Sequence record: ON568341.1
Reading direction: 5' to 3' (one strand)
Source of the DNA: Escherichia phage UE-S1
DNA length: 64,000 nt
Positions 2,003-38,148 of this stretch are shown here, piece after piece; the first letter of the stretch is position 1; each line of letters begins with the position of its first letter. The position numbers were made by a program, and so were the translations under genes. The notes under the pieces were generated by a model. That model was not told the DNA's origin. It saw nothing but the letters and a program-made list of their open reading frames with translations, and ran no database searches.

Positions 2003-5000
2003 TTAAGAACCAATATTTATATTGCTTTTAGCTAATGAGTTAACTATTTGAACATTTTCTACTGATGCCGTACTCAAAAATATTTGGTCCGAACGTGATG
2101 GAATTTCAAATAGTGACCCAAATTTTGAATTTGGATTTTGTGCAACAATAACAATTGTACTAATATGTCTCCCCAATTGGGAATGTATATAAGTACACAA
2201 ATCAGTGTAATAGAAACTTTCACCAAAATCCCAATTATCAACATTAAAATATTCATTTGTTAATGCAATAACATTTTGACGAATTTCATCGTCACTCATA
2301 GTACTATTTGGTAATTTAACAACTTTAAAATCAGCTTTATAGTCTTCAGCAGCACTATTGCCAAACAATGGTAGGTACTCTGCACTATGCCAAATAATAC
2401 TGTCACTGATGACAATTTTTTGCTCAACATCTTTGAACATATTTTTCAATTCAACTGATGTAGGTGGTTTTGGGATACTTCCAACTGCATTATTTTTCAA
2501 CCACACATCAACTTCGGTTTTATACGAGTTAGTTAGAACATACATATCAATTAAGTTTGTTCTACTTGGATCAATGCGATTATCGTCAGGTGCATAATGT
2601 TTCCAATGGAAGTCAATACTTGTACGAGCATTTGTTTTGACTGTGTATTGTGCAGTAACATCTTTATAACCATAGTAATCCAACTTCTGATTCTCATCAG
2701 AATTAGTACCCATGTTGTTAATTGTACGATAAAATGCGAGTTCTGGTGTAACAGTTATGGTGTCATCTGAATATGTCAAATTACTAATTAATTGACCCAA
2801 ACGATCATTGTTGTTACCAACGGTTTGTTCGATGAAATAATATTTACCATCATATTTAAAACACACTAAGAATCCAGAACCTTTACTGTACAATCCACTC
2901 AATGAGTTAGAACGAATTGCATTATTTCGTACAAATTCAGTTCTTTTATATGTATTAGGTTCAGCTAATGCTTGTTCCATCGTATAAGACCAAGATGAAT
3001 CTAGAAACGTGAATGTATCATTTGGTAAAGATAGAACTGAAATAGTAAAATCATTATTTTCTTTGAATATCAAAATACCACCATATTTCAATGCATCAGT
3101 ACCTGACCATTCTGGAACAATTTCTTTAAATTGGTTTGGTTCCAATGGTATACCATTACTATCTACTTTTCTAGATGTGACAATAATACGAGAGCCATCA
3201 AGATATCCATTTTCTTGCTGTATTGTATCATAAATTTGAAAATCAATATTACTCGTCAGTCCAGAATTGTTAGTACTGGTGGTGTTCGAAGATAAAATTT
3301 CAATCTTATCGCTTTGAACAGTGCCAGTACTAATATCAGTTATTTTTTTGGATGAAACAAAGTAAAATTTCACTTTATCCCCACCAACGAATATATATTC
3401 AATACCATTAGCGTCAAATTCCCAAGTTTCTGCTGTATATTTTACATTTATAACAACCAAAACTTCATGACCATTATACATAATAGTATCATCATTCGTA
3501 CTTACTTCTACCGGAACCCATGCAGTTGTTTCTTTGTCATGCACAATGACAAAATCAGTTTTCTTATCCAACATTGCAGAAATAGATTGAACTTCAACGG
3601 AATCAAACCTAGTTCTATATGGTAATATATAATCAATTGCTTGCATTCTACTTGGTACGGATGTACTTAATACATAAAACCCATTATCTAATACACTAAC
3701 AATACTTGCCCATACTGTAGTGGTAGAGTTAGAAAATTTAATCAAAGTACCCACCTGATACGAGCCATATACAGTCCCAGATGAACCCAAAATTCTACCA
3801 TATGTATTTGTAGTATAATTTGAATTATATACAGGCGTCCATGATTGTTGGATTTCAATGCCAATCGTATTGGAAGGGTAAGCTTGATAGCGTTGTATTA
3901 CCGCATTTTCACCAATCAATGGTTGAATATTATCAATAACAATGCTGGCATTAGTTTTTGTTGTTGGTAGTAATAGTGACCTATTAAATTTAGTATTTTC
4001 TTGATATAATGCCCCGTCATCACTAAACACATCAGTGTTTTGGTATTTTCCAGTAGGATCATTGATGTCAATAAATCTAGACTGACCACTATAAATTCTA
4101 TTAATAGCTTTCGACTTAAGCACTGTATTCCCTAAACTAAGGGGTGCTATATTATAATCTTCACCATTAACAAAGCGGTTTTGTGTATAGTACATTTGTG
4201 GTGCACGTGCTTTAATCTGCTCAATTGTCTCAGCACTTTGTGCACGATCTGATTCATATTGTAATGAAAAACGTACATCCAACGTACTAGATTCATAACT
4301 TGATTGTGTTTTAGTTCGATATGTATACTTTACACTTTTATTTTGAATTTCTGATGTTTTAATGTTATACGTTTTACCATTACTGACGCGATACCACACG
4401 CGAAAAGTTCCACGCGGCACAACACCACTTCTAGAATCTGGATATTTAATTGTTATTTGGTCTTTGTCACGTGTTGAAACAGCAAAAATTGTTTTTAATT
4501 GACGGTTAACCGTATTATATGCAATACTTTCCATAGATGGTACTTTTGTCCATTTCGCACGCACAATACCATCTTCATTAATTTCTTGAACCCAAACATC
4601 AGTTTCGTTTATATTATCAACGTTTACATCTTGTATTCTATTTTCTTCACGAATATTATATTGATAATCTTGATATGTCAACGTCCCTTGTATAAAATAT
4701 ACAAAAAAACCAGTATTTGGTGAACTGAATCCATTACCATCATTTTGATAGACAATATATTTTTGTTCTTGCGGTTCTGGGTGACGTTCCTCAACACCAA
4801 CGGATGTAATGTCAGGGTTTACCACTTCAAATGTCATAGATTCACCATTTACTGTTGCAACAAATGGTATACTTGGTGCAGTCATTGGAATTGTATTCAT
4901 CCTATACAATTGTCGAGATACACCATTAACATCAATACGTTTAACTGGGTTACCAAATTGATTAGTACTAACAAATGAGCTATTCATAACAAGAATGAAG

Positions 5001-5464
5001 TTTTCATACCAATTTGCATCCATCGGGTCATTCCAACGAATAATTTTATCTTTTAGCGATTCATTGAAACTATTACGAACATCTTGGTTAGTTTTAATTT
5101 CAGTTAATTTAGCAACTGCACGACCAGGATAAGAACGGCGTGGTGCATAAGAAATCATTTTAGCTAGTTTTAGAACTGATGCACGACGTGTTGCAGTATC
5201 TAAAAAGTTTTCACGTGTGTTTAAATCCATACGAAATGCCAAGTTCTGTCCTAGCATAGAAATTGTATCCAGAATAAAAATGAATTGGTCATTTTCAATC
5301 CAGTCATTGAATGAATCAGGATACGTTTGACGCAAATAATCAATCATACTCTGGCGAATAGTATCAAAATCATATGCAGTAAGATTGATTTTATAAAAAC
5401 TTTCATAAACTTGAGTCCAATCTTCACCACTATATAAATTTGATTGCCTTTTTTGTTGTGACAT
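2003..5464 (-). CDS. Baseplate wedge protein, gp6-like (1153 aa)
   Basis: Long ORF directly downstream of gp25-like gene, as in the conserved gp25/W - gp6/J - gp7/I myovirus baseplate order; RBS AAAGGAA before ATG; ATAAATA late-promoter-like box on minus strand at about 5511-5517. Assignment by size and synteny, not by motif. Confidence 0.45.
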   Translation of the reverse strand: MSQQKRQSNLYSGEDWTQVYESFYKINLTAYDFDTIRQSMIDYLRQTYPDSFNDWIENDQFIFILDTISMLGQNLAFRMDLNTRENFLDTATRRASVLKLAKMISYAPRRSYPGRAVAKLTEIKTNQDVRNSFNESLKDKIIRWNDPMDANWYENFILVMNSSFVSTNQFGNPVKRIDVNGVSRQLYRMNTIPMTAPSIPFVATVNGESMTFEVVNPDITSVGVEERHPEPQEQKYIVYQNDGNGFSSPNTGFFVYFIQGTLTYQDYQYNIREENRIQDVNVDNINETDVWVQEINEDGIVRAKWTKVPSMESIAYNTVNRQLKTIFAVSTRDKDQITIKYPDSRSGVVPRGTFRVWYRVSNGKTYNIKTSEIQNKSVKYTYRTKTQSSYESSTLDVRFSLQYESDRAQSAETIEQIKARAPQMYYTQNRFVNGEDYNIAPLSLGNTVLKSKAINRIYSGQSRFIDINDPTGKYQNTDVFSDDGALYQENTKFNRSLLLPTTKTNASIVIDNIQPLIGENAVIQRYQAYPSNTIGIEIQQSWTPVYNSNYTTNTYGRILGSSGTVYGSYQVGTLIKFSNSTTTVWASIVSVLDNGFYVLSTSVPSRMQAIDYILPYRTRFDSVEVQSISAMLDKKTDFVIVHDKETTAWVPVEVSTNDDTIMYNGHEVLVVINVKYTAETWEFDANGIEYIFVGGDKVKFYFVSSKKITDISTGTVQSDKIEILSSNTTSTNNSGLTSNIDFQIYDTIQQENGYLDGSRIIVTSRKVDSNGIPLEPNQFKEIVPEWSGTDALKYGGILIFKENNDFTISVLSLPNDTFTFLDSSWSYTMEQALAEPNTYKRTEFVRNNAIRSNSLSGLYSKGSGFLVCFKYDGKYYFIEQTVGNNNDRLGQLISNLTYSDDTITVTPELAFYRTINNMGTNSDENQKLDYYGYKDVTAQYTVKTNARTSIDFHWKHYAPDDNRIDPSRTNLIDMYVLTNSYKTEVDVWLKNNAVGSIPKPPTSVELKNMFKDVEQKIVISDSIIWHSAEYLPLFGNSAAEDYKADFKVVKLPNSTMSDDEIRQNVIALTNEYFNVDNWDFGESFYYTDLCTYIHSQLGRHISTIVIVAQNPNSKFGSLFEIPSRSDQIFLSTASVENVQIVNSLAKSNINIGS

Positions 5465-5520
5465 AATTTATTCCTTTAAATCAGTAAAGTACTAGTTCAG
5501 TACTGGGAATTATATAGAAA

Positions 5521-5549
5521 TATTTATTCAAAAAGAAAAGCACTCAGAA
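5521..5549 (-). terminator. Hairpin terminator/attenuator between gp25-like and gp6-like genes
   Basis: Inverted repeat aaagcactc-agaa-gagtgcttt with flanking T/A run. Confidence 0.4.
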
Positions 5550-5565
5550 GAGTGCTTTTTCTTAG

Positions 5566-5961
5566 TTATAAAGACGATACAGAATATGTTGCCATTCTAT
5601 TATTACTTCTTGCATCAAAGACTATAGAAAGTTCTTCTACCGTATTCAATACAACGTATTGTAATACGATATTCATTTGGTATCCATATTCAATTCTTGA
5701 AATTTGTATGTTTTTAAGATTTAAGCGTGGATCTAAGCTAATAATCCTACGTGCATCTGCTTCTAAAAGGTTAATAGTATTATATCCTTCCAATTCAAAC
5801 AACAAATCCCATGCAATAAACCCATAGTCTGCATCGAATGCTCTTTCGCCTTTTTTTGTATTAAAATGATTCATCAAATCCTGACGAACCAATTCATTAT
5901 CATACAACGTTTCAGTTCTACCCACAACTGGTGTAGAGAAACCTTTGAAAACAACTGCCAT
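5566..5961 (-). CDS. Baseplate wedge subunit, gp25/GPW-like (131 aa)
   Basis: Size and residue pattern (…KKGERAFDADYGFIAWDLLFE…) resemble T4 gp25 / P2 gpW family; position between spike/lysozyme and wedge genes. Confidence 0.75.
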   Translation of the reverse strand: MAVVFKGFSTPVVGRTETLYDNELVRQDLMNHFNTKKGERAFDADYGFIAWDLLFELEGYNTINLLEADARRIISLDPRLNLKNIQISRIEYGYQMNIVLQYVVLNTVEELSIVFDARSNNRMATYSVSSL

Positions 5962-5974
5962 TGTCTATTTCCTT

Positions 5975-6463
5975 TTATACGGATTCGACGATACGTGCCA
6001 TCTTTTCCGCTCTAGAAGTGGTTTGTTTATACCATGTACTATCACGCAATTCTTTACCAGCAGTTTTATAATCAGCTTTACCTAATGCGGACATTGCTTT
6101 TTTGAATTTCAAAACTTTGGTTTTACCCATTTGGAATACCATCATCCACAATACACGTTGTACCTGTACTGGTGCTGTCATACCAAACTGTTCATAAATG
6201 GATTTTGCGTCATTGTACGCAGTTTGAGCATCTTTAATAAGAAGTTGGTCTGCTTGTTCTTCAGTTAAACCATTTTTGAAGTTCTCGTTGGGAAGAACTA
6301 AATGACCATAACCAATAGTATCAAGTCCGAGGCTATCTTTATATACCCAAAACTTATCATTTTTAAAATATCCAAGTTTTTTTTGATAAGAAATTGTACC
6401 TTCAAACTCTTTAATTTCTTTAAAAAACTGCTCATCTGTATTTTTAATTTCCCATTTACTCAT
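5975..6463 (-). CDS. T4-type lysozyme (GH24), stand-alone; probable endolysin (162 aa)
   Basis: Motifs EFEGT…DTIGYGH…MVFQMG…WYKQT…RA match the T4 lysozyme family; own late-type promoter on minus strand (TATAAATA at 6480-6487) and RBS GAGGA. Confidence 0.85.
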   Translation of the reverse strand: MSKWEIKNTDEQFFKEIKEFEGTISYQKKLGYFKNDKFWVYKDSLGLDTIGYGHLVLPNENFKNGLTEEQADQLLIKDAQTAYNDAKSIYEQFGMTAPVQVQRVLWMMVFQMGKTKVLKFKKAMSALGKADYKTAGKELRDSTWYKQTTSRAEKMARIVESV

Positions 6464-6499
6464 AAAGACATCCTCATTTTATTTATAGTACTGAAATAT

Positions 6500-9163
6500 T
6501 TATTGACATGCCTCCAAACGTCGAGCCATTAACTCAGCACGGCGTGTCGTTTGGCGATACCAAGCCGAATTACGGATTTGTGCTGCTGCTTGTTTATAAT
6601 TTCCTTTCGCTAATTCAGATAACATTGTTTTAAATTTAAGAACTCCACCTTTGCCCATTTGAAATACCATTTGACATAGAACTTGCTGTGCCATATAAGG
6701 AGTTTTCATGTTATATGATGCATAAATTGATTTAGCATCATAAATTGCTTTACTACTATCACGAACAAGCATATCATTTGCTTGTTGTTCAGTTATACCA
6801 GAAGAAAAGTTTTCGCCATTCACGATTAAATGACCGTAACCAATAGTTGGGTAGCCACGACTATCCAAATAACGCCAGAATTTACCATTTCGATAATACC
6901 CTTTTGCTTGTTGATATTGCATAGTACCCTCATATTCCTTTAATTCGGAAATAAATTGAGAATCACCTGGGACAATTTTCCAATCTATTGCAGTTTTATC
7001 TACATTACCGACATTATATGTTGGTTGTACAACTGGTGTAGATGATACACCACTTCTCTGTGTTCTTCTTTTACGAGGTACATGTCGTGAGCCACGCTGT
7101 GAATAACCAGTACCAATTGTTTTAATTTTGGTAGTAACGACCAATTCATCACTATCAACGGATGGTTGTACTACTGCTTGCGGTGAAGATTGATTTGTTG
7201 CTTGACCTGCAATCAATGTTTTATTAGCTGCATCTGCACCAATACCAGTTTGTGATGCATAAAATAATCCTGGGTCAACTGAACCACTAAAGCCGAGGAC
7301 GTTAGCTGACGTTACACGTATTTCAAATTGCATAACACCATTTGCTTTACCAATGACCTGTCCCTTTTGAACTACATCCTTGTTTAGTAAATTCGTTTGA
7401 ATATTATAAAATATAGATTTATAACCAGATTTATGTTGAATCAAAATCCCACCATTAGTAATTACAACAACACCACCATCTGGTGCAACAACATCTCCTT
7501 TACATTGTATTTCCCATCCAGAACGGTCAGTCTTTCCTCCATTTTGTGTTGGAATGCCTTTTCCCCAATAGCCGTATTGACGAATGGTCCCACTACACGG
7601 CATATACATATGCAAACCTTCATATGTAATGCTATACCCAGTCATTCCAGTATCAGATACCATTAAATCTTGTGTTTGAACTTGTTCGGTTTCGGGTGTA
7701 TAGTTCACAAACTGAATAGCTTCAGTTTCTTGAGCTTCAGGAATTTCTGGTGTAACATCATTTGCAGGCTGTGGCTGAACAGGGGATTCACTTGAAATCT
7801 TCCCCCCACCTTGTCTTGGTGGTTCAACATAACTACCATGGTTTTTCGCATCAACCCATGAAACAATGTCATGAATGTGTTCATTAAGACCAGCAGATGG
7901 TGTTCTGAAATTTGGTGCAGTAAATTCAGCAGTACCGCTATTACCACCACTATTAACTGTTAATGTTTGACCTCCACCACTAACAATTGCTGAAGATGAA
8001 CCAATTAAGTTTGCAGATGTAGAAGCAGAAATAGACGCATTTGAACCAGCAGTAATATCAGTACTGCTACCACTTTGCATACGTAAGGACGCAGCAGTGA
8101 CCAGTCGAAGATCAGCACCGGAATTAACCACAACTTGTCCACCAACTTTTGCATCAAGAGTTCCAATTAGATCTAATTTAGTATTGGCTCCTACGCGTGC
8201 ATTAAAATCTTGACCCGTTTCAATATTATATGAACGACCAGCAGTGATGTTAATATCTTGCCCTGCACGAATATTGATATTCTTATCACAGTGCATGTCA
8301 ATATCCCCTTCACCAGTAAATTTTATACGGGCGGTCCCATCACGATTAATTAAAAGTACATCCCCCGTTGCTTCTGATAATAAAAGTTGTGCACCACTAC
8401 GGGTTTTTATTACAACTCCTTCATTTTTACGAGAACCAACACGGGTGTCGTTTACTGGGTTATTGAATTGTGTATCTTGATATCCATCTGGGTCTTGATC
8501 CCATGTGGGTGCAGTTAATTCCTCTTCGGTATAGCCATCATCAATGATGAAACTATTTCCACGTGGGGATGACATCCCATATACAGTACTCGTTGTTTGG
8601 CGAGTACTACTTCGGTTAGCAAGGCCAGCTTCTTCATCATACAAAAGGTTTTGCTTTTTAAGACCAGCAATAATTGGAACATTTGCATATTTGTCTTGCA
8701 TATCAGTAGTGAGTGTGTTACGATCATAGTCAGTAACAGGAAGAGGCATATCTGTTCCGCTATAATTACTAACATCTGTTGCCATACCAGGGACCATAGT
8801 ATTCATGCGATGGTCATATACACAACCAATCCAATACGCTTGAAATGTACGAGCCTGTGCGAAAATCACAACAACAGTGCACCCAACATCAGGCGGCACA
8901 GCCCAGAATCCATAACCTTTAGGATACTGTCCATAAGCATCTGCACTTGGAATACCTGGTGTTTTACCAGCAAAAGGAGACATATAAGATGCCTCAATCC
9001 ATGATTCTTTTGAATTTTTATCGCTTTGTGAACCTTGTATCCAAACTTTTAACTTTCCAGATTTAGTTGGATCTCTATTATCCATAACTGTTGCTAATTG
9101 TGGATAAGCTGGGTCAAAACGACCCAACTGTTGTTGTGCATACTTTTTACTTGTATCTGCCAT
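6500..9163 (-). CDS. Baseplate central spike, gp5-like (887 aa): N-terminal gpV/OB-fold, Gly/Ser/Thr-rich beta-helix-like repeats, degenerate M23-like segment, C-terminal T4-type lysozyme domain
   Basis: N-terminus KVWIQG…GFWAVPPDVGCTVVVIF (gp5/gpV OB-fold pattern); central repeats (VGANTKLDLIGTLDAKVGGQVVVNSG…); C-terminal ~160 aa (EYEGT…TIGYGH…MVFQMGKGGVLKFK…WYRQTTRRA) about half identical by eye to the adjacent stand-alone lysozyme. Confidence 0.75.
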   Translation of the reverse strand: MADTSKKYAQQQLGRFDPAYPQLATVMDNRDPTKSGKLKVWIQGSQSDKNSKESWIEASYMSPFAGKTPGIPSADAYGQYPKGYGFWAVPPDVGCTVVVIFAQARTFQAYWIGCVYDHRMNTMVPGMATDVSNYSGTDMPLPVTDYDRNTLTTDMQDKYANVPIIAGLKKQNLLYDEEAGLANRSSTRQTTSTVYGMSSPRGNSFIIDDGYTEEELTAPTWDQDPDGYQDTQFNNPVNDTRVGSRKNEGVVIKTRSGAQLLLSEATGDVLLINRDGTARIKFTGEGDIDMHCDKNINIRAGQDINITAGRSYNIETGQDFNARVGANTKLDLIGTLDAKVGGQVVVNSGADLRLVTAASLRMQSGSSTDITAGSNASISASTSANLIGSSSAIVSGGGQTLTVNSGGNSGTAEFTAPNFRTPSAGLNEHIHDIVSWVDAKNHGSYVEPPRQGGGKISSESPVQPQPANDVTPEIPEAQETEAIQFVNYTPETEQVQTQDLMVSDTGMTGYSITYEGLHMYMPCSGTIRQYGYWGKGIPTQNGGKTDRSGWEIQCKGDVVAPDGGVVVITNGGILIQHKSGYKSIFYNIQTNLLNKDVVQKGQVIGKANGVMQFEIRVTSANVLGFSGSVDPGLFYASQTGIGADAANKTLIAGQATNQSSPQAVVQPSVDSDELVVTTKIKTIGTGYSQRGSRHVPRKRRTQRSGVSSTPVVQPTYNVGNVDKTAIDWKIVPGDSQFISELKEYEGTMQYQQAKGYYRNGKFWRYLDSRGYPTIGYGHLIVNGENFSSGITEQQANDMLVRDSSKAIYDAKSIYASYNMKTPYMAQQVLCQMVFQMGKGGVLKFKTMLSELAKGNYKQAAAQIRNSAWYRQTTRRAELMARRLEACQ

Positions 9164-9176
9164 ATTTTTTTATTCC

Positions 9177-11426
9177 TTAGTCAACTATACTATCGTGACG
9201 TTTAAGTGCACGGATTACAATTGCAGCTTGAATTTGTTGTGTAAAAGAACCACCTGCACCAAAATCATGAACGATTTTATTAACACGATAAATTGTTTGA
9301 TTAAACGTAGTTGGTGTATTAATATCCAATACACCAGTGTTATCATTAATTGACACTACTGGTTGTAATTTTAATAATAGATATGCTTCAGATGTTATGT
9401 AGTTTGCTACGTGATAATCATCTGGATTAATTTCCATATCCTCACCATTAATTACTTGCTCTAGATATTGTAAGTACGAGTAATCACTCCATCCTAACCA
9501 ATATGGATCACCAACTACACGCATATCAAGCTTGCACAAAAAAGGTCTATTGTAATAGTTGTCACGTATTTTACGTCTATCCATTTCATATGTACTACTG
9601 TTATCGTTTAGAGAAGCCGATAACGTCGTTTCATTATTGGTTGCTTCAGTAGGCATTGTGAATACTTCACCATAACGATGTCCAATCCCATCAGTTCCTT
9701 CATCGTTTTCTTCATATGTAGTGACATAATCTTCAATATATTGTGGTAACACATTTACTTGATAATTATTATAACGGTCTTGTTCTTCAGCGTTCCCGAC
9801 CTGCATTTGGTTTTTAGCCAACGTATCAATTTCTGACAATAAATCTTGTTGGTCTTTTGTTAACATTCCACCCATATCACGTGTTACACGCAAATCACTT
9901 GTTTTTGCCCATGCATCTGGTATACTATTATATTGCACACCTTGTATATTCAATTCTTGTGAGTTATGTGTACCAGAATGGTTTGCCACGTCTTGAATTG
10001 GCCCTGGGTTACGGGTAGTGGCTACGAAAAATTGTTGGTCAAATTTTAAATCCAAATCAATTATCTCACTATTAAGACCACTAAACTGATAATTATAAGT
10101 TTTTATATTCAATTTTGGTTTTTGATCGATAGGATCTACATATTTTTCCGCATTCTCAAAGAAATATTCAAATGTGAAATTTTCTGGTTGTAAATCAGAT
10201 TCATGTACAATATCACCTATCTTAAATTTAACTATATAAAAAATAACTTTATAAACTGAAGTGTTACGATAATTATCAAAACCAATATATTGTTTTATTG
10301 GTATAATATTAACAAATTGTCGTACACTGGTGCTCTCATCTGCTTGTACTGTACAAGTATCAATAACATCATCAATAATTCTGGATATAGGAGTACTTGG
10401 GTTCCATGAAAAGTTTTTAGAACCTTGGGTTCCACTTTTAGTTGTTCCAGCTTCTGCCATTTGTTTAGAATCATAATTTATAAACAAATCTTGTAAATCA
10501 GGAGCAACTTTAAATTCAAAAAATTTGCCATCAGATAATTCACCAAATTTATATCTAAGATACCCATATTGTTGGTCAGCCATCTGATTTAATTTATCTT
10601 CCAAATCAAAACAGAAATCACCAAAGTTTTCAGCCGTACAATTAAATGGTTCTTTAAGTGTCCATTCAATATTATCAACCAATGCTGCTCTATTATGAAC
10701 TAAACTCATAGAATACATCATAGTACTTCCACTTTGTGATGCACTAGCCGTTATACTATTAATTTTAACTGACCATCTTCGTGTTGTTTCAGGAATAATT
10801 TCAGGGATTCCATTCTTATTAAAACCTATGAACTTTAATTCCAATATCAAAGGTAAGTCCATGAATTTATGAAATCTAAGTTTATTACTTAACGATATTA
10901 GTTCATCATATAGACTCATACTATTATTTTCAGACATATTAAGAACAGCCGTATTGAAACAATAGTTAGTTGTCATTCCAGGTGTGGATGGTCCAGCTTG
11001 CGTCATTTGTACACTTGTGATATTATATTTTCCACTAACACCACTTTCAGATATAACATGACGCTGCACGTCGGCATCTGGATAAAGCCAAAAATTTTTA
11101 AAATCATCCTTATCCAACGCAAACAGACAAAAATGCCAAGTTGGATTATCATATTTTAATAGTTTGTTGTTGTATGGTATCACAAATTGACTTAAATCTA
11201 AATCTTCATAAACTTGTCCCATACCAGCACTCTGTGATGGCAATGACTCAACATTACTAACATTTGCTTTATAGTTATTTTTTGTAATAGCTTTCACGTC
11301 ATTTTGTAATGTATTAGCGGTAGCTTTCAAACTATCCAATGAATTAGATGCAGTTGTTTTTGTCTTCTTATTAATACTTGAAATATCATTTTGAAAATTA
11401 TCAACTGTACTTCGTAAATCTGCCAT
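9177..11426 (-). CDS. Putative baseplate hub protein (gp27-like position), 749 aa
   Basis: Immediately upstream of, and nearly abutting, the gp5-like gene on the same strand; no diagnostic motif recognised, call by synteny only. Confidence 0.3.
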   Translation of the reverse strand: MADLRSTVDNFQNDISSINKKTKTTASNSLDSLKATANTLQNDVKAITKNNYKANVSNVESLPSQSAGMGQVYEDLDLSQFVIPYNNKLLKYDNPTWHFCLFALDKDDFKNFWLYPDADVQRHVISESGVSGKYNITSVQMTQAGPSTPGMTTNYCFNTAVLNMSENNSMSLYDELISLSNKLRFHKFMDLPLILELKFIGFNKNGIPEIIPETTRRWSVKINSITASASQSGSTMMYSMSLVHNRAALVDNIEWTLKEPFNCTAENFGDFCFDLEDKLNQMADQQYGYLRYKFGELSDGKFFEFKVAPDLQDLFINYDSKQMAEAGTTKSGTQGSKNFSWNPSTPISRIIDDVIDTCTVQADESTSVRQFVNIIPIKQYIGFDNYRNTSVYKVIFYIVKFKIGDIVHESDLQPENFTFEYFFENAEKYVDPIDQKPKLNIKTYNYQFSGLNSEIIDLDLKFDQQFFVATTRNPGPIQDVANHSGTHNSQELNIQGVQYNSIPDAWAKTSDLRVTRDMGGMLTKDQQDLLSEIDTLAKNQMQVGNAEEQDRYNNYQVNVLPQYIEDYVTTYEENDEGTDGIGHRYGEVFTMPTEATNNETTLSASLNDNSSTYEMDRRKIRDNYYNRPFLCKLDMRVVGDPYWLGWSDYSYLQYLEQVINGEDMEINPDDYHVANYITSEAYLLLKLQPVVSINDNTGVLDINTPTTFNQTIYRVNKIVHDFGAGGSFTQQIQAAIVIRALKRHDSIVD

Positions 11427-11437
11427 GTGTTACTCCA

Positions 11438-11752
11438 TTAGCCTATGTTTCGAGTACCATTAAGATAGTTTTGTACTCTTTGATTTGCTGGTATTCTAAT
11501 TGTTACTCCACTTTTAAAATTATATATAGGATCTTCTCCTAATATATCTGGATTTAACAATGCAAAAATATAATATAGACGTTCATTGCCATACATCTCG
11601 TAGGCTAAACGCCAGGGTTGATATTCATACTTCAATGGGATCTCATAAAAATCATCAGTATCAGCAGGAACTATATCTCGTGGTAAATTATAACCAAGAT
11701 ACCAAGATTGTTTCACCTTAGCATAAGGTGAGTATTGACTATAGTTGGACAT
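11438..11752 (-). CDS. Hypothetical baseplate-module protein (104 aa)
   Basis: ORF in the minus-strand baseplate operon; start overlaps upstream gene stop. Confidence 0.4.
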   Translation of the reverse strand: MSNYSQYSPYAKVKQSWYLGYNLPRDIVPADTDDFYEIPLKYEYQPWRLAYEMYGNERLYYIFALLNPDILGEDPIYNFKSGVTIRIPANQRVQNYLNGTRNIG

Positions 11753-12483
11753 TAAATAAATCCTCCTTTGCGTAATAGTTCACCTCGTTTAAATGCATTG
11801 AGGTTAAACGTTTTAGTCATATAATCAGATGTCGGTTGTTCTTCAAGTTGTAACATAACTGATATTTTTTGTGGAACCCAAACTTCATCTTGTGGATTCA
11901 TATATCCAGTACTTCTAAGTTGTTCGAAGAATTTTCTACTATCCATATCGGATAAATTAAAAGTACTGTCACTACTATTCAAAGGAACTTGAATATAAGA
12001 AACATCATTAGGATATGTAAAATTATAAGATTTTAAAATTACCGGAATATCATTATATGTGTAACGACCATATCCACTTAAAAGTAAAATTGGTGGTGGT
12101 GCACCAGCAATTGCCAATTCGGGGTTATTAGCAGATGCTGCTTGTCTACCAAAATCCATCAATGAAACCGAACGTATAAAATGAACACATGCCAATGCAT
12201 ACATGGCTTCTGCTGCCGTATTAGCATAAAATTCACCCTGAATAGTGAAAACCGTATTGGTGGTGTTTTTGTAATTATTATAGTTACTATTGGTATGTAT
12301 AGGTGACTGTGTTTCATACTGAATTGACCTTTGTTCAGTAATTATTGGTGTTACAGTCCAAACCAACCCATTAGTTGGACGCAGAAACGAAAGTAGTGTT
12401 GGTTCGGAGCTATCCCCGAAATCACCATATACATAGTTAGCACCTGCGGCTTTAGGTCGTAATCGAATTCTACGATCAATCAT
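11752..12483 (-). CDS. Hypothetical baseplate/tail protein (about 244 aa from ATG at 12483; ORF track extends to a GTG at 12540)
   Basis: GGAG RBS 9 nt before ATG(12483, MIDRR…); late promoter TATAAATA on minus strand at 12518-12525. Confidence 0.4.
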   Translation of the reverse strand: MIDRRIRLRPKAAGANYVYGDFGDSSEPTLLSFLRPTNGLVWTVTPIITEQRSIQYETQSPIHTNSNYNNYKNTTNTVFTIQGEFYANTAAEAMYALACVHFIRSVSLMDFGRQAASANNPELAIAGAPPPILLLSGYGRYTYNDIPVILKSYNFTYPNDVSYIQVPLNSSDSTFNLSDMDSRKFFEQLRSTGYMNPQDEVWVPQKISVMLQLEEQPTSDYMTKTFNLNAFKRGELLRKGGFI

Positions 12484-12517
12484 CTTTTGATTCTCCATCA
12501 TAAGGGAACATTTGATG

Positions 12518-12525
12518 TATTTATA
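12518..12525 (-). promoter_or_regulatory. Late promoter (TATAAATA) for the minus-strand baseplate operon
   Basis: Exact TATAAATA on minus strand about 34 nt upstream of ATG 12483. Confidence 0.5.
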
Positions 12526-12527
12526 CG

Positions 12528-12556
12528 TGGGACAAAACACTTTTTGGTGCTATAAT
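12528..12556 (+). promoter_or_regulatory. Sigma70-like promoter with phage-specific upstream box (GTGGGACAA-N14-TGCTATAAT)
   Basis: Member of a recurrent motif family (see findings); about 57 nt upstream of gp55-like start. Confidence 0.5.
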
Positions 12557-12613
12557 AACATTGATGGTATAAGGATTGTATCTATTGGATTTAAACATGG
12601 AGAGTTGAATATA

Positions 12614-13453
12614 ATGACAAATAGACCAAAGCGTAAAAAGTATCTCAATAATGCTGATTTACTTCGTGAAATACAAAAAAGTAAGATTTCATATTGCTGG
12701 TTATTAGACAAATCATATAGTATGTATGATTATATCGTTTTTCATGAGTCAGAAATTACTGCTGAGTTACTTGAAAAAGCAAAAGCAGCACGAATTAAAC
12801 GACTTAACAATGAAATGCTTGATAGTATTCGTGCAAAGGAAAATATGAGTGCTAAAAAAGCGAAAGAATATGCAGAAGAAAATAATCTAGTTATTACTGA
12901 TGTTCCAATTGATGAAGTAGTTATTCGTGTTATTACAGATGAACACATCCCACCAGATACTAGAGTTAATTTTGAACCTTTCAAACATTATATCGTAGAT
13001 AATGAAGGTATTCTTTATGAAGTATGTCGCTCTCATTGGAAAGGTGACCTTGAATCTGGGGAATTTAGTACTGTTCATGGTAAAATAACAAATGAACTAG
13101 GGAAAATGTTCATTAAACTAGCAGAGGAAATCTCACATAAATCTAACTATAGAAACTATACATACTTAGATGAAATGATGGGTGATGCAAGAATACAATT
13201 AGTTAAAAATGCACTTCTCTTTAAAGAGAGTATTCTTTATAAAAAAGACAAACCCGCTGTACAACTAAATCCTTTCTCTTACTATACATCATTCGTAAAC
13301 AATAGTTTTCGTTCAATTTTGAATAGTGAGAAAAATGTTCGAAATATACGTGATGATTTACTTGAAATGCATGGCTTTACACCATCACATACACGTCAAA
13401 TTGAAATTGAATTGAACATGATTGAAAGGAAAAATGAAGATGGCACTGTTTGA
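12614..13453 (+). CDS. Late-transcription sigma factor, gp55-like (280 aa) with about 110-aa internal insertion
   Basis: N-terminus (RPKRKKYLNNADLLREI) and core/C-terminal segments (GKITNELGKMFIKLAEEISHKSNYRNYTYLDEMMGDARIQLVKN; NPFSYYTSFVNNSFRSIL) resemble T4 gp55 as recalled; RBS GGAGAG; adjacent to gp47/gp46 as in T4. Start taken at ATG 12614 rather than ORF-track 12512. Confidence 0.7.
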   Translation: MTNRPKRKKYLNNADLLREIQKSKISYCWLLDKSYSMYDYIVFHESEITAELLEKAKAARIKRLNNEMLDSIRAKENMSAKKAKEYAEENNLVITDVPIDEVVIRVITDEHIPPDTRVNFEPFKHYIVDNEGILYEVCRSHWKGDLESGEFSTVHGKITNELGKMFIKLAEEISHKSNYRNYTYLDEMMGDARIQLVKNALLFKESILYKKDKPAVQLNPFSYYTSFVNNSFRSILNSEKNVRNIRDDLLEMHGFTPSHTRQIEIELNMIERKNEDGTV

Positions 13454-19127: not shown

Positions 19128-19135
19128 TATAAATA
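19128..19135 (+). promoter_or_regulatory. Late promoter TATAAATA (context ATAAATATTTC)
   Basis: Exact TATAAATA 33 nt upstream of ATG 19168. Confidence 0.55.
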
Positions 19136-21383: not shown

Positions 21384-23123
21384 ATGAGTTGGAAACGACA
21401 TATGACAGTGGGAAGGTCAAAGCTATCGACTATCCCAAATCAGTCCAATAATAGCAATAAATCAACAGGAACAAAAACCAATTTTGCTTCCTATCTTCCA
21501 GTTGTATATAATGGATTGGCAAACCGTACTGAACGTTATAGTCAGTATGAGCAAATGGACCAAGACCCTGAAATTAGAACTGCATTGAATATCATTGCTG
21601 ACTTTTGTACTCAAAGTACTGAAGATTATGGTTTACCATATAAAATAAAATACAAAGATGATATTGGGGATACTGAAGTAACAACGATTGAAGATCGTTT
21701 AGATGCATGGACTGAACAAAATGATTTTAAAACACGAATGTATGAGATTGTACGTGGTCTTTTGAAATATGGGGACCAGTTTTTTATCCGAGATCCAGAA
21801 ACATTTGATTGGTATTGGGTGAGTCCAAAAAACGTCGAACAAGTATTTGTTAATGAAGCAACTGGGAAAACACCAGTAATTTATTACATACGTGATGTAT
21901 CATTAAACTTAAAAGATAAAGTTTATAGTAATCTACAAGTTGGATTCGATAAAACCGCTTATCCTGGTGCTATTCCTACAACAATGGGTGGTGGTGGTTC
22001 TGTCGCTGCTGGCGGTGCATCTGGATTCACTAGTCAAGGTAATACTGCTGACCCTTTCAGCACTAATGGTCAATTAGATGTTATTCCTGTTGGTGCAGAA
22101 CACGTAATCCATTTGACGCTAAATACTGGACAAGATGGAGTATGGCCTTTTGGTACTAGTATACTTGAGGATGTATTCAAAGTTTATAAACAAAAAGAAC
22201 TTCTAGAAGATAGTATCATAATTTATCGTGTACAACGTGCTCCAGAACGTCGTGTTTTTAAAATCGATGTTGGTGATATGCAAGCACATCAGGCAATGGC
22301 TTATGTGGAAAGATTTAAAAATGAAATTCATCAGCGTAGAATACCTTCAAACAAAGGTGGAAGTACTTCTTTAATGGATGCAGCATATAATCCTTTAAGT
22401 ATATTAGAAGATTACTTTTTCCCACAAACTTCTGAAGGTCGTGGTTCGGATGTTCAAACTTTACCAGGTGGTGATAACTTAGGGCAAATTGATGACTTAC
22501 GCTACTTCAATAATAAATTGATACGTGGTCTTCAAATACCAGCTTCCTATCTACCACAAGGTCCAGATGATGGTGGTGTTTCATTATTTGGTGATGGTGC
22601 AACACAAGCTATGGCAAGTGAATTACGATTCAATAATCAATGTATGCGTTATCAGCGTTTAGTTGCGAAACATTTTGATGCTGAATTCAAAAGATTTATG
22701 GTAAAAAATGGATATAATATTAGTACTTCATCATTTGAAGTCATTATGAATCCACCAATTAACTTAGCTTCTTATCGTAAAGCTGAATTGGATGCTAAAT
22801 TAATTAATACATATCTACCTCTTAATGATTTACCTTATATGGCTAAACAAACAATTCTTGAGAAAATGGGCTTTTCTAAAGCAGATATTGTTAAGAATGA
22901 ACAAATGTGGTTACAAGAGAATCCACAAGATGGTTCTCAACCTTCTAGTGGTGAAGAAGATTCTGCTGGATTACAGTCTGTTGGTATTGATGCACCAAAT
23001 GACCCAGGTATGGATCTTGGTATTGACGGTGATGGTAATTTAGAAAGTGCTGATTCCGAATATCAAGAACAACAAAGTGGAAGTGATGGTTTCAATCCTA
23101 ATAATTTAGGCAATTCTTTTTAA
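21384..23123 (+). CDS. Portal vertex protein, gp20-like (579 aa)
   Basis: Size and position heading the 20-67-68-21-22-23-like head cluster; no motif-level confirmation. Confidence 0.6.
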   Translation: MSWKRHMTVGRSKLSTIPNQSNNSNKSTGTKTNFASYLPVVYNGLANRTERYSQYEQMDQDPEIRTALNIIADFCTQSTEDYGLPYKIKYKDDIGDTEVTTIEDRLDAWTEQNDFKTRMYEIVRGLLKYGDQFFIRDPETFDWYWVSPKNVEQVFVNEATGKTPVIYYIRDVSLNLKDKVYSNLQVGFDKTAYPGAIPTTMGGGGSVAAGGASGFTSQGNTADPFSTNGQLDVIPVGAEHVIHLTLNTGQDGVWPFGTSILEDVFKVYKQKELLEDSIIIYRVQRAPERRVFKIDVGDMQAHQAMAYVERFKNEIHQRRIPSNKGGSTSLMDAAYNPLSILEDYFFPQTSEGRGSDVQTLPGGDNLGQIDDLRYFNNKLIRGLQIPASYLPQGPDDGGVSLFGDGATQAMASELRFNNQCMRYQRLVAKHFDAEFKRFMVKNGYNISTSSFEVIMNPPINLASYRKAELDAKLINTYLPLNDLPYMAKQTILEKMGFSKADIVKNEQMWLQENPQDGSQPSSGEEDSAGLQSVGIDAPNDPGMDLGIDGDGNLESADSEYQEQQSGSDGFNPNNLGNSF

Positions 23124-36922: not shown

Positions 36923-37129
36923 ATGCCATTATATACATATCGTTGTGAAAAAGAAGAATGTAAACATAGTATGGAAAAAATTGTTAAAATTGCTAATCGT
37001 GATGAACCCCATGACTGTCCTAAATGTAATGGTAAAAAGACTATGAAGTTAGAAGTATTCACACCAGGTGATAAAGGTGCTAATCTTTATTTCCGTGGAA
37101 AATGGTTTGCAAATACTGGAGGATACTGA
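36923..37129 (+). CDS. FmdB-family zinc-ribbon protein (68 aa)
   Basis: MPLYTYRCEKEEC…HDCPKCNG arrangement typical of FmdB-type zinc ribbons. Confidence 0.55.
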   Translation: MPLYTYRCEKEECKHSMEKIVKIANRDEPHDCPKCNGKKTMKLEVFTPGDKGANLYFRGKWFANTGGY

Positions 37130-37130
37130 T

Positions 37131-37430
37131 ATGAAAATTAAAATGATTAATGATTACGTTCTTGTTCGTCAAATTGAAGCACAGAATAAAAGTTCTGGTG
37201 GTATTATTCTAGGGAATGTTGAGCCACCATGCATTGGTATGGTAATTTCCGTTGGTCCAGGTAAAGTTCTACCGAACGGACAACTAGCAGAGCATGATAT
37301 TAAAGAAGGTGATATGGTTGTATTTGGACGTTCATCTTTGAACACTCCCCTAACTGAAGATCTTGGTGGTGGAGAAGACACATACTATGTAATGAAAATC
37401 GAAGAGATTTTTGGTAAGAAAAATGGCTAA
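37131..37430 (+). CDS. GroES-like co-chaperonin (T4 gp31 functional analog), 99 aa
   Basis: Cpn10 pattern MKIKMINDYVLVRQ…GGIILGN…GMVISVGPGKVLPNGQ…IKEGDMVVFGR; GGAGGA RBS before ATG 37131 (ORF track start 37068 is upstream extension). Confidence 0.7.
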   Translation: MKIKMINDYVLVRQIEAQNKSSGGIILGNVEPPCIGMVISVGPGKVLPNGQLAEHDIKEGDMVVFGRSSLNTPLTEDLGGGEDTYYVMKIEEIFGKKNG

Positions 37431-38148
37431 AAATAAATTTATACCATTTTGGATGATCCCTGCTCACTGGGGACTTTCTGGTAAGGCAAAAGAAATAGCC
37501 AAAGCATATTACTACAATGATGATTATGAAGCTGATATGAAGATTGCAGAATTGACATATCTAACTCCATATGAAGTTGAAGTAGCACAATTGGATATCA
37601 AAAAGAAATATGGTGTAATAGAAGAGTTAGAATATCTAATTGCTATACTAGATGTAGAATTGAAATATTCCAAAATTACTCGTGAACAGTATGATGTTAA
37701 AGTTCTTGATGCAAAATTGAGTACTGGTGCAATCACTGAAAAAGAATATGATATGGAAATCATCGAGCTAATGCCAGATGGTGATGAAAAAAGACTAAAG
37801 GCTATTGAATTTGCATATCGTTATGATGAAATCACACAAAGTGAATATTCTAAGGAAATATATACACTTCGAAAAGAGCCTTGGATTGATTTGAATGTGG
37901 TTCTTGACCCTGAAACAAATGAAGTTGAGTTTGTGTTTGATTATAATGAATATTTCTGGAAAAAACTGAAAGCGGAAGGTCATCCAGGTAATGACGAAGA
38001 AGAAATTATCGATAATTTTGTTAGAGACTTAGGTCGCAAACTTGCTACAGATGATTTCAGTGATGATTATGACGCAAAGTTGGTGAGTGTGAACGAAGGA
38101 TTAGACAAGCTACCTGGTTTACCTGAAGGATTTCGTTCATATAGATAA
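37423..38148 (+). CDS. Hypothetical protein (241 aa)
   Basis: ATG 37423 overlapping GroES-like stop; followed by bidirectional terminator. Confidence 0.4.
   Translation: MAKNKFIPFWMIPAHWGLSGKAKEIAKAYYYNDDYEADMKIAELTYLTPYEVEVAQLDIKKKYGVIEELEYLIAILDVELKYSKITREQYDVKVLDAKLSTGAITEKEYDMEIIELMPDGDEKRLKAIEFAYRYDEITQSEYSKEIYTLRKEPWIDLNVVLDPETNEVEFVFDYNEYFWKKLKAEGHPGNDEEEIIDNFVRDLGRKLATDDFSDDYDAKLVSVNEGLDKLPGLPEGFRSYR

Follow-up and report, generated by a model that had tools for sequence, protein, structure and literature searches.

Within 64,000 nucleotides of the genome of Escherichia phage UE-S1 (record ON568341.1; this whole stretch is hereafter the window), two neighbouring genes encode T4-type lysozymes of glycoside hydrolase family 24 (GH24): one is part of an 887-amino-acid (aa) relative of the T4 baseplate spike protein gp5, and the other is a free protein of 162 aa. 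The locus raises the question of how a spike is built whose lysozyme does not lie where T4 gp5 has it, and of what the second enzyme does. A first-pass annotation, made from the sequence alone, had proposed that the spike carries its lysozyme at the extreme C-terminus, behind the needle, and that the two enzymes arose by duplication and divided the labour between entry and lysis. Our analysis bears out the domain order and the duplication, adds a conserved HxH motif at the end of the needle, and leaves the proposed role in lysis doubtful.

A gp5-type spike with its lysozyme at the C-terminus

Pfam scans and profile searches gave the following order for the 887-aa protein: OB (oligonucleotide/oligosaccharide-binding) fold, beta-helix, HxH motif, linker, LytM/M23 domain, basic linker and GH24 lysozyme. 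The features on which the argument rests are these:

6500..9163, minus strand: predicted central baseplate spike gene, 887 aa (open reading frame [ORF] and domain hits)
8816..9097, minus strand: OB-fold, residues 23-116 (Pfam PF04717 Phage_base_V, 29.8 bits, cut-off 23.8)
8429..8815, minus strand: conserved segment of about 125 aa, residues 117-245 (invariant columns)
7904..8416, minus strand: predicted triple-stranded beta-helix needle, residues ~250-420 (Pfam, profile, composition)
7829..7903, minus strand: apex-like segment TPSAGLNEHIHDIVSWVDAKNHGSY, residues 421-445, with the HxH at H429/H431 (conservation, weak PDB matches)
7643..7828, minus strand: Pro/Glu/Gln/Val-rich linker, residues 446-507 (composition)
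7244..7642, minus strand: degenerate LytM (peptidase M23-fold) domain without zinc ligands, residues 508-640
6983..7243, minus strand: second linker, residues 641-727, with the conserved pattern G691-S692-x-x-V-P696-[RK]-[RK], here RGSRHVPRKRRTQRSG
6503..6982, minus strand: C-terminal GH24 (T4-type) lysozyme domain, residues 728-887
5975..6463, minus strand: stand-alone GH24 lysozyme, 162 aa (ORF and Pfam PF00959)

Apart from the HxH motif and the first linker, this is the order that the first-pass annotation had given, down to its LytM barrel without metal ligands: the lysozyme is not central, no beta-helix follows it, and the repeats are those of a beta-helix. DUF2345 (PF10106, the VgrG beta-helix) matches residues 278-329 at 34.2 bits (cut-off 30.7). 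When 18 family members were made into a profile covering residues 240-450, it found VgrG beta-helices at E=3e-6 and 1e-5, the cyanophage A-1(L) central spike at 4e-4 and C-terminal fragments of T4 gp5 at about 0.01, besides other spikes of contractile injection systems. We therefore regard the Gly/Ser/Ala/Thr-rich repeats of residues 271-425 as a needle of the gp5/VgrG type. In an AlphaFold2 monomer model the predicted local distance difference test score (pLDDT) is about 80 over residues 250-390 and 69.8 for the whole protein. The trimeric intertwining of the helix is a prediction from sequence.

A Phage_base_V OB-fold, a needle behind it, a place in a baseplate gene cluster and orthologues in virions are all found here, as in central spikes of the gp5/gpV type, and point to a central position in the baseplate. 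By analogy, the OB-fold may dock the spike to hub and tube. Published mass spectrometry (MS) has detected spike orthologues in the virions of three relatives (phAPEC6 gp241, CBB_240 and that of fENko-Kae01). The layout is not that of T4 gp5, where the lysozyme stands between OB-fold and helix. Here the lysozyme occupies residues 728-887, and the place that it has in T4 gp5 is taken by the segment 117-245, for which we found no Pfam family and no lysozyme signal. That segment is nevertheless conserved: its invariant columns include P125, P142, R148, Q171, D176, R188, G196 and D208-G210, and it is also present in relatives that match only the N-terminal part of the protein. Its pLDDT in the monomer model is 48-68.

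An HxH motif at the end of the needle

Directly after the helix, within the sequence TPSxGLNxHIHxH, lies an HxH pair, H429 and H431, which is invariant in all 45 aligned full-length homologues (37-91% identical to the window protein). HxH is a marker of apex domains, and in the apex of P2 gpV and phi92 gp138 it forms an Fe-binding cage of six histidines (bioRxiv 10.1101/2023.02.25.529910). When a profile of residues 372-447 was compared with the PDB, only ten sequences were returned at E<=10. The best was phi92 gp138 (E=0.18), with the HxH aligned, and two more gp138 entries came next. A 207-aa 'puncture apparatus' (9ndy_G) also matches (E=1.1), with NEHTHHYYWTD facing NEHIHDIVSWVD of the window. 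Each of these matches is insignificant alone, but together they are specific. The motif is thus a putative metal-binding His-cage apex, an assignment that we regard as probable.

What sets the protein apart is the position of the motif. In gpV, gp138 and 9ndy_G fewer than about 20 residues follow the HxH, whereas 456 residues follow H431, so that the motif does not stand near the C-terminus as it does in apex-bearing spikes. An internal HxH ahead of C-terminal domains is new beyond the published descriptions of the relatives RaK2 and CBB.

A LytM domain without zinc ligands

The first domain behind the apex-like segment has the M23/LytM beta-barrel fold. Pfam Peptidase_M23 matches residues 549-608 at 20.2 bits (E=7e-4), below its cut-off of 28.7, and a profile of residues 508-645 from 24 sequences matches SpoIIQ (1.5e-6), LasA (1.9e-6), DipM (5e-5) and zoocin A, with EnvC weaker (E=0.03). 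The zinc ligands of the family, HxxxD and HxH, and its catalytic His are missing in all 45 aligned members. The strand that should carry HxxxD reads G549-W550-x-I-Q553 (G in 43 and W in 45 of the 45), and position 553 is Asp in only three. The HxH stretch reads V-M-Q-F-E-I-R, and there is no histidine at the YxH position either. H518 and H577 are the only histidines of the domain, and the sole conserved one, H577, occupies a non-ligand 'IxH' position. A MAFFT alignment to the active M23 domain of the homologue P0097 placed the HWGID strand well and misplaced the HxH region; it is the lack of any histidine there that shows the HxH to be absent. Given the missing ligands, we class the domain as a degenerate LytM and not as a peptidase.

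Loss of the ligands has not been followed by decay, as W550, R616, G624, G627 and D630-P631-G632 are invariant. In an exhaustive profile search this LytM lineage was confined to the spike family: seven cluster representatives scored below 1e-30, all of them 870-985 aa long with the LytM domain at the same relative place, and generic M23 proteins came next at 1e-17. Most likely the domain is a peptidoglycan-binding or protein-docking module. Its firm assignment is new, since the RaK2 and CBB papers left the segments flanking the helix unassigned.

Two linkers flank the LytM domain. The first, residues 446-507, varies in length across the family, has a pLDDT below 50 at 447-460 and 491-511, and is probably flexible. 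The second contains the basic stretch VPRKRRTQRSG to which the first-pass annotation had drawn attention. G691 and P696 never vary there, and most sequences have Arg or Lys at 697-698; the pLDDT is below 50 at 683-718.

Two lysozymes from one old duplication

Pfam Phage_lysozyme matches residues 765-882 of the spike at 46 bits and ends five residues from the C-terminus; nothing follows it in the Pfam scan. The catalytic residues E745, D767 and T773 correspond to E11, D20 and T26 of T4 lysozyme (T4L) and are conserved among the aligned homologues (Glu745 and Asp767 in 44 of 45 each, Thr773 in 33 of 45). The 162-aa protein likewise has the T4L fold and a PF00959 match (37.9 bits), and it retains its catalytic E21, D43 and T49. 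NCBIfam added nothing beyond a sub-threshold match to a gene-transfer-agent endolysin. The free protein and residues 728-886 of the spike are identical at 84 of 159 positions (53%, E=1e-58), in keeping with the earlier estimate of about half, and in both copies 13 residues absent from T4L are inserted between the catalytic Glu and Asp. The free orthologue LysUE1, from Asteriusvirus UE-S1 and 96% similar to 121Q gp586, is muralytic in vitro, and more strongly so with ethylenediaminetetraacetic acid (PMC12805682).

The two genes are co-oriented and 36 nt apart. Spike and free lysozyme are also adjacent in Asteriusvirus, GAP32, CBB, XaC1, XbC2, fHe-Yen9-04, the Erwinia pEa_SNUABM phages, Serratia BF, fENko-Kae01, 7t3 and Munch. 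In RaK2, four small ORFs separate them and the free gene still lies directly upstream of gp25, while Vibrio phage 2.275.O has a spike with a lysozyme domain and no adjacent free copy. We built neighbour-joining trees of the GH24 sequences from the spike domains of enterobacterial and Xanthomonas phages, the free copies and the Vibrio spike domain. Bootstrap support was 0.855 for a clade of the spike domains, 0.61 for one of the free copies and 0.83 for the two joined, and the Vibrio spike domain fell outside. Since this separation of spike-domain and free copies holds across genera, the trees indicate one ancient duplication with no later gene conversion. A recent duplication or gene conversion was rejected, as paralogues of the same genome are never each other's closest relatives. 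The duplication that had been proposed for this pair is thus borne out, and it is old.

These phages have a third GH24 paralogue, which lies outside the window. In phAPEC6 it is gp293c (37101-38027), a 308-aa protein with an N-terminal hydrophobic anchor and a LysM domain, an architecture that we confirmed to be the same as that of CBB_187. The CBB authors named CBB_187, with its transmembrane segment, LysM and lysozyme domains, the endolysin, listed homologues in 121Q, GAP32 and RaK2, and found cloning of a homologue of gp293c to be toxic (PMC5259590). In the phAPEC6 protein the insertion between the catalytic Glu and Asp is longer still, and the gene lies among non-structural genes, beside a homologue of ribosome-associated inhibitor A. 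In the window itself, the sole tblastn match to a third lysozyme was weak (22617-22907, E=0.05) and lay inside the portal gene; it was discarded.

A late promoter motif upstream of the free lysozyme gene

The first-pass annotation had given the free lysozyme gene a late promoter of its own, and a suitable motif is present:

6480..6487, minus strand: TATAAATA, T4-type late-promoter motif, 16 nt upstream of the ATG of the free lysozyme gene

A GAGGA Shine-Dalgarno sequence lies between the motif and the ATG. The total number of copies in the window, 11, is not above chance (10.96 expected). Their distribution is another matter: six of the 11 lie no more than 70 nt upstream of a gene start on the same strand, although 3.3% of the sequence consists of such space (binomial P=5.5e-7), and composition-preserving shuffles of the upstream regions gave a mean of 1.0 copies (P=0.0014). 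We conclude that these six copies are probably gp55-dependent late promoters. For CBB and GAP32 the same motif, given as ATAAATA, has been put forward as the late promoter (PMC5259590).

The upstream copies are located at 6480, 12518 and 17169 on the minus strand and at 19128, 25012 and 26221 on the plus strand. The genes behind the six are the free lysozyme gene, the gene that opens the baseplate operon, an endonuclease VII-like gene, a virion protein gene before the portal gene and two genes of the head block. The program-made ORF list overextends two divergent genes near the second of these sites (11752..12540 with a GTG start and 12512..13453 with a TTG start). By the 121Q annotation, in which the genes measure 732 nt and 840 nt, the true starts lie near 12483 and 12614, and the corrected starts leave a divergent intergenic region of about 130 nt that holds TATAAATA at 12518-12525 on the minus strand.

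Upstream of the orthologous lysozyme gene, the motif is also found in 121Q and RaK2. Being present in some relatives only, the private promoter is a feature of this lineage and not a conserved design; to this extent the earlier claim holds for UE-S1 and does not extend to GAP32, XaC1 and fENko-Kae01.

Entry, lysis and competing explanations

We consider the following reading, taken as a whole, likely. The 887-aa protein would be the trimeric central spike of the Asteriusvirus baseplate, the counterpart of T4 gp5 and P2 gpV. Its OB-fold would seat it on the hub and tube, residues ~250-420 would form the triple beta-helix needle, and H429/H431 would close that needle with a His-cage apex like those of P2 gpV and phi92 gp138. 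The chain would then continue past the apex, through a flexible linker of about 60 residues, into the dead LytM domain and the intact lysozyme. If P2 and T4 are a guide, sheath contraction would drive the spike and its attached domains through the outer membrane into the periplasm, as has been shown for P2 gpV (bioRxiv 10.1101/2023.02.25.529910). There the lysozyme would cut glycan strands locally and let the tube pass, while the dead LytM domain may bind peptidoglycan or a partner protein. The free lysozyme, an ancient tandem duplicate, would be expressed late as part of the baseplate operon, and its own TATAAATA would serve as an additional promoter in this lineage. The enzyme would act as a soluble muramidase from within at lysis, holin-dependent in the manner of T4 e, alongside the anchored LysM-GH24 paralogue.

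Several observations weigh against parts of this reading. For the apex, the PDB matches are statistically weak (E=0.18 to 1.5), the monomer model is unreliable at residues 400-460 (pLDDT 36-51) and cannot represent a trimeric helix or apex, and the reading does not explain how some 450 residues of each chain would leave a sharp apex. For the spike, MS did not find RaK2 gp078 or the XacN1 hub protein, and the activity of its lysozyme domain is predicted from the conserved catalytic residues. For the free lysozyme, GAP32, XaC1 and fENko-Kae01 have no TATAAATA motif upstream of their orthologue; the position of the gene inside the baseplate operon, with the spike and gp25 genes, is conserved across genera and fits a role in the baseplate; the CBB authors described CBB_238, CBB_239 and CBB_240 as possibly baseplate-associated (PMC5259590); and the third paralogue, with its membrane anchor and LysM domain, is the published endolysin candidate. 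The 162-aa orthologue is missing from the virion lists of phAPEC6 and CBB, and the fENko-Kae01 record has no note of detection by liquid chromatography-tandem MS. The gp25-like protein, however, is likewise missing or unflagged in the same three sources, so that the absence of a small, low-copy protein is weak evidence. The fENko-Kae01 and JP4 papers mention neither the spike nor the free lysozyme.

That the free lysozyme takes part in lysis is the weakest inference in the reading, and we regard it as doubtful. As regards a part as soluble endolysin, we observed the late motif, the absence from the phAPEC6 and CBB virion lists and the activity in vitro; no holin was identified, and a transmembrane-LysM-GH24 protein competes with it for the part. 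The division between entry and lysis put forward in the first-pass annotation is therefore not established: the free copy is muralytic and unlisted in virions, but the literature gives the endolysin role to the anchored paralogue. Alternatively, the 162-aa lysozyme might work with the spike at entry, either as an accessory present in few copies in the baseplate or virion or as an assembly factor, with the anchored LysM-GH24 protein as the true endolysin. The free gene stands directly between spike and gp25 genes across genera, and directly upstream of gp25 even in RaK2; where it has no motif of its own, as in GAP32, XaC1 and fENko-Kae01, it must be co-transcribed with the spike gene; and the opinion of the CBB authors on CBB_238-240 and on CBB_187, whose architecture phAPEC6 gp293c shares, points the same way. 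Set against this are its absence from the phAPEC6 and CBB virion lists and the unflagged fENko-Kae01 record, the lack of any recognisable docking domain in a bare 162-aa GH24 fold, the solubility and independent activity of LysUE1, and the precedent of T4, whose free endolysin is paralogous to the lysozyme domain of gp5. We think a baseplate role rather unlikely, though it deserves serious attention.

The long extension behind the apex invites a different solution, in which the dead LytM domain and the lysozyme are cleaved off during assembly, at G-S-x-x-V-P-[RK]-[RK] or in the Pro-rich linker. Maturation would in that case leave a needle that ends at the HxH apex, with the enzymes either carried along by non-covalent contacts or lost. 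Cleavage would restore the usual 12-20 or so residues between apex and C-terminus where 456 now stand; it would give a meaning to the invariant G691 and P696 and the mostly basic positions 697-698 within an otherwise variable linker of low model confidence; and T4 gp5 is itself cleaved during assembly. Yet no tail-protein protease is known in these phages, evolved VgrGs deliver large C-terminal domains uncleaved, and the phAPEC6 table lists the spike with a predicted mass of 95.9 kDa and 7 peptides only. On this evidence we judge cleavage unlikely, though it too deserves serious attention. The tethered LytM domain could instead serve as an activator of host AmiA/B/C or other autolysins at the puncture site, after the fashion of EnvC, NlpD and DipM; host enzymes would then cut the peptide stems and the phage lysozyme the glycan. 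Strong conservation despite the loss of ligands in all 45 members argues for a selected non-catalytic function, and the restriction of the lineage to the spike family agrees with this. The fold match does not discriminate, however, since the scores of active M23 enzymes come close (Csd3 14.7, StM23 14.2), and a simple peptidoglycan-binding or structural role covers the same data, which makes an activator role very unlikely in our estimate. Most speculative is a combination in which the spike would be the phage counterpart of an evolved VgrG, with an internal His-cage apex, cargo behind it and a dead LytM domain that recruits host amidases or an autolysin. We hold this to be highly improbable; were it true, a muramidase of the phage and hijacked peptidoglycan hydrolases of the host would act together at entry.

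The locus and its relatives

The window belongs to an Asteriusvirus jumbo myophage similar to 121Q and PBECO4 (121Q/RaK2-type). A megablast search with region 5500-9500 matched 44 phage records, of which ph0011 was the best (89.2% DNA identity), followed by 121Q (88.8%) and PBECO4, G17 and phAPEC6 (about 88%). At about 89% DNA identity the window is a new species-level variant, and its spike differs in nothing essential from the orthologues of its relatives. The genes around the spike and the free lysozyme are as follows:

2003..5464: gp6-like gene
5566..5961: gp25-like gene
9177..11426, minus strand: virion structural protein, 749 aa
11438..11752: gp53-like gene
~12.6-13.45 kb: gp55-like late sigma factor gene, divergent

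The baseplate block thus reads gp53-like, 749-aa virion protein, spike, lysozyme, gp25-like and gp6-like, the same gene order as in Asteriusvirus genomes. Orthologues of the spike are 121Q gp587, RaK2 gp078, CBB_240 and phAPEC6 gp241, and those of the free lysozyme are 121Q gp586, LysUE1, CBB_239 and RaK2 ORF073. PHROG 13211 covers the spike end to end (887/887, 1788 bits), and annotations of the gene pair exist in more than 70 phage genomes. Spike orthologues measure 880-894 aa and have the same domain order and the same neighbours. Their aa identity to the window spike is about 59-94% among Asteriusvirus, GAP32 and the Erwinia/Yersinia members, and the C-terminal half is 48-91% identical across 72 phage records (66% in RaK2).

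Two features of the neighbourhood may be recorded. The 749-aa virion protein upstream of the spike, for which Pfam, NCBIfam and PDB sequence searches gave no match, is a candidate for the gp27-like hub. It is kept in Asteriusvirus, RaK2, GAP32, XaC1 and a PA5oct-like phage; Vibrio phage 2.275.O is without it, and its spike gene follows directly after the gp53-like gene. Between the gp25-like and gp6-like genes, 121Q has the HNH homing endonuclease gene 584 (11224-11988, group I intron-associated). The mobile element is absent from UE-S1, because the window has only a bare gap of 101 nt (5465-5565) at that site.

Comparison with known spikes

The architecture is not a new kind of spike, as it has been published for close relatives. 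The odd order was noted for RaK2 gp078 in 2013, when the beta-helix was described as flanked by unassigned regions and followed by a C-terminal lysozyme, and three lysozyme paralogues were reported (PMC3622015). In 2017 the CBB paper described CBB_238 as gp25-like, CBB_239 as a T4-type lysozyme and CBB_240 as a protein with a gp5 N-terminus and a C-terminal lysozyme (PMC5259590). The practical result of our work is a corrected domain-level annotation of the spike and of the free GH24 enzyme, an orthologue of which has already been tried as an antibacterial.

The comparison with T4 shows likeness in the parts and difference in their arrangement. T4 gp5 and the UE-S1 spike both combine an OB-fold and a triple beta-helix with a GH24 lysozyme, and both phages have a separate free GH24 paralogue, TATAAATA late promoters and a gp55-type sigma factor. 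In T4 gp5, however, the lysozyme stands between OB-fold and helix, and a separate PAAR protein, gp5.4, forms the tip. In UE-S1 the lysozyme comes last, a dead LytM domain is added, an HxH follows the helix and the free paralogue is adjacent, with a third paralogue in these phages. With P2 gpV and phi92 gp138 the spike has in common the OB-fold, the beta-helix and the HxH directly after the helix. Their apex ends the protein some 12-20 residues past the HxH, whereas the UE-S1 spike adds a linker and enzymes.

For the LytM domain, the cellular proteins EnvC, NlpD, DipM and SpoIIQ are regulators or scaffolds, and their identity to the phage domain is only 21-23%. Among tail-tip proteins, phi29 gp13 and the hub protein gp15 of cyanophage A-1(L) also combine lysozyme and M23 domains; there an active M23 sits on the knob or hub, and in UE-S1 a ligand-less LytM sits on the spike.

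The wider family shows what may be attached behind the needle. A database search returned 86 homologues that match over their full length; in a further 31 the likeness is limited to the N-terminal 33-47% (68% in one). Among these 31, P0097 has a canonical M23 domain (HWGID ... HLHLE) and a trypsin-like domain, P0111 a GH19 domain, P0090 a C-terminal GH24 domain and P0116 two GH24 domains; the PA5oct-like phage Ettore has a 477-aa spike at the same locus with no C-terminal domains. In view of these varied C-termini we regard the spike core as a platform for the exchange of wall-degrading domains, and this swapping in the wider spike family is new beyond the RaK2 and CBB papers. We also observed that in the sister spikes P0090, P0091, P0097, P0111 and P0116, which match only in the N-terminal part, a motif P-[TQYF]-[HF]-E-P-[WYC]-x(1-3)-H, for example PTHEPWPHHENLDP, replaces the HxH at the end of the helix, with the variable enzymatic domains, where present, after it; the motif may be an alternative tip or junction element.

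The first-pass annotation had likened the spike to evolved VgrGs, which belong to type VI secretion systems (T6SS), and as an analogy this holds. VgrG-3 of V. cholerae, for example, carries a C-terminal peptidoglycan hydrolase. The beta-helix of the UE-S1 spike is homologous to that of VgrGs at profile level (E=3e-6), enzymatic domains are placed after the helix in both, and relatives of the UE-S1 spike swap these as modules. A VgrG also has a gp27-like N-terminal half, a T6SS locus and a blunt end capped by PAAR, whereas the UE-S1 spike has none of these: its OB-fold begins at residue 23, its gene lies in a phage baseplate operon and its helix ends in HxH. It is a phage spike and not a VgrG. 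The T4 gp5 plan is thus not common to every contractile-tail spike: a whole clade of jumbo phages and its metagenomic sister clades place interchangeable wall-degrading domains behind the needle tip, as do the evolved VgrGs of the T6SS.

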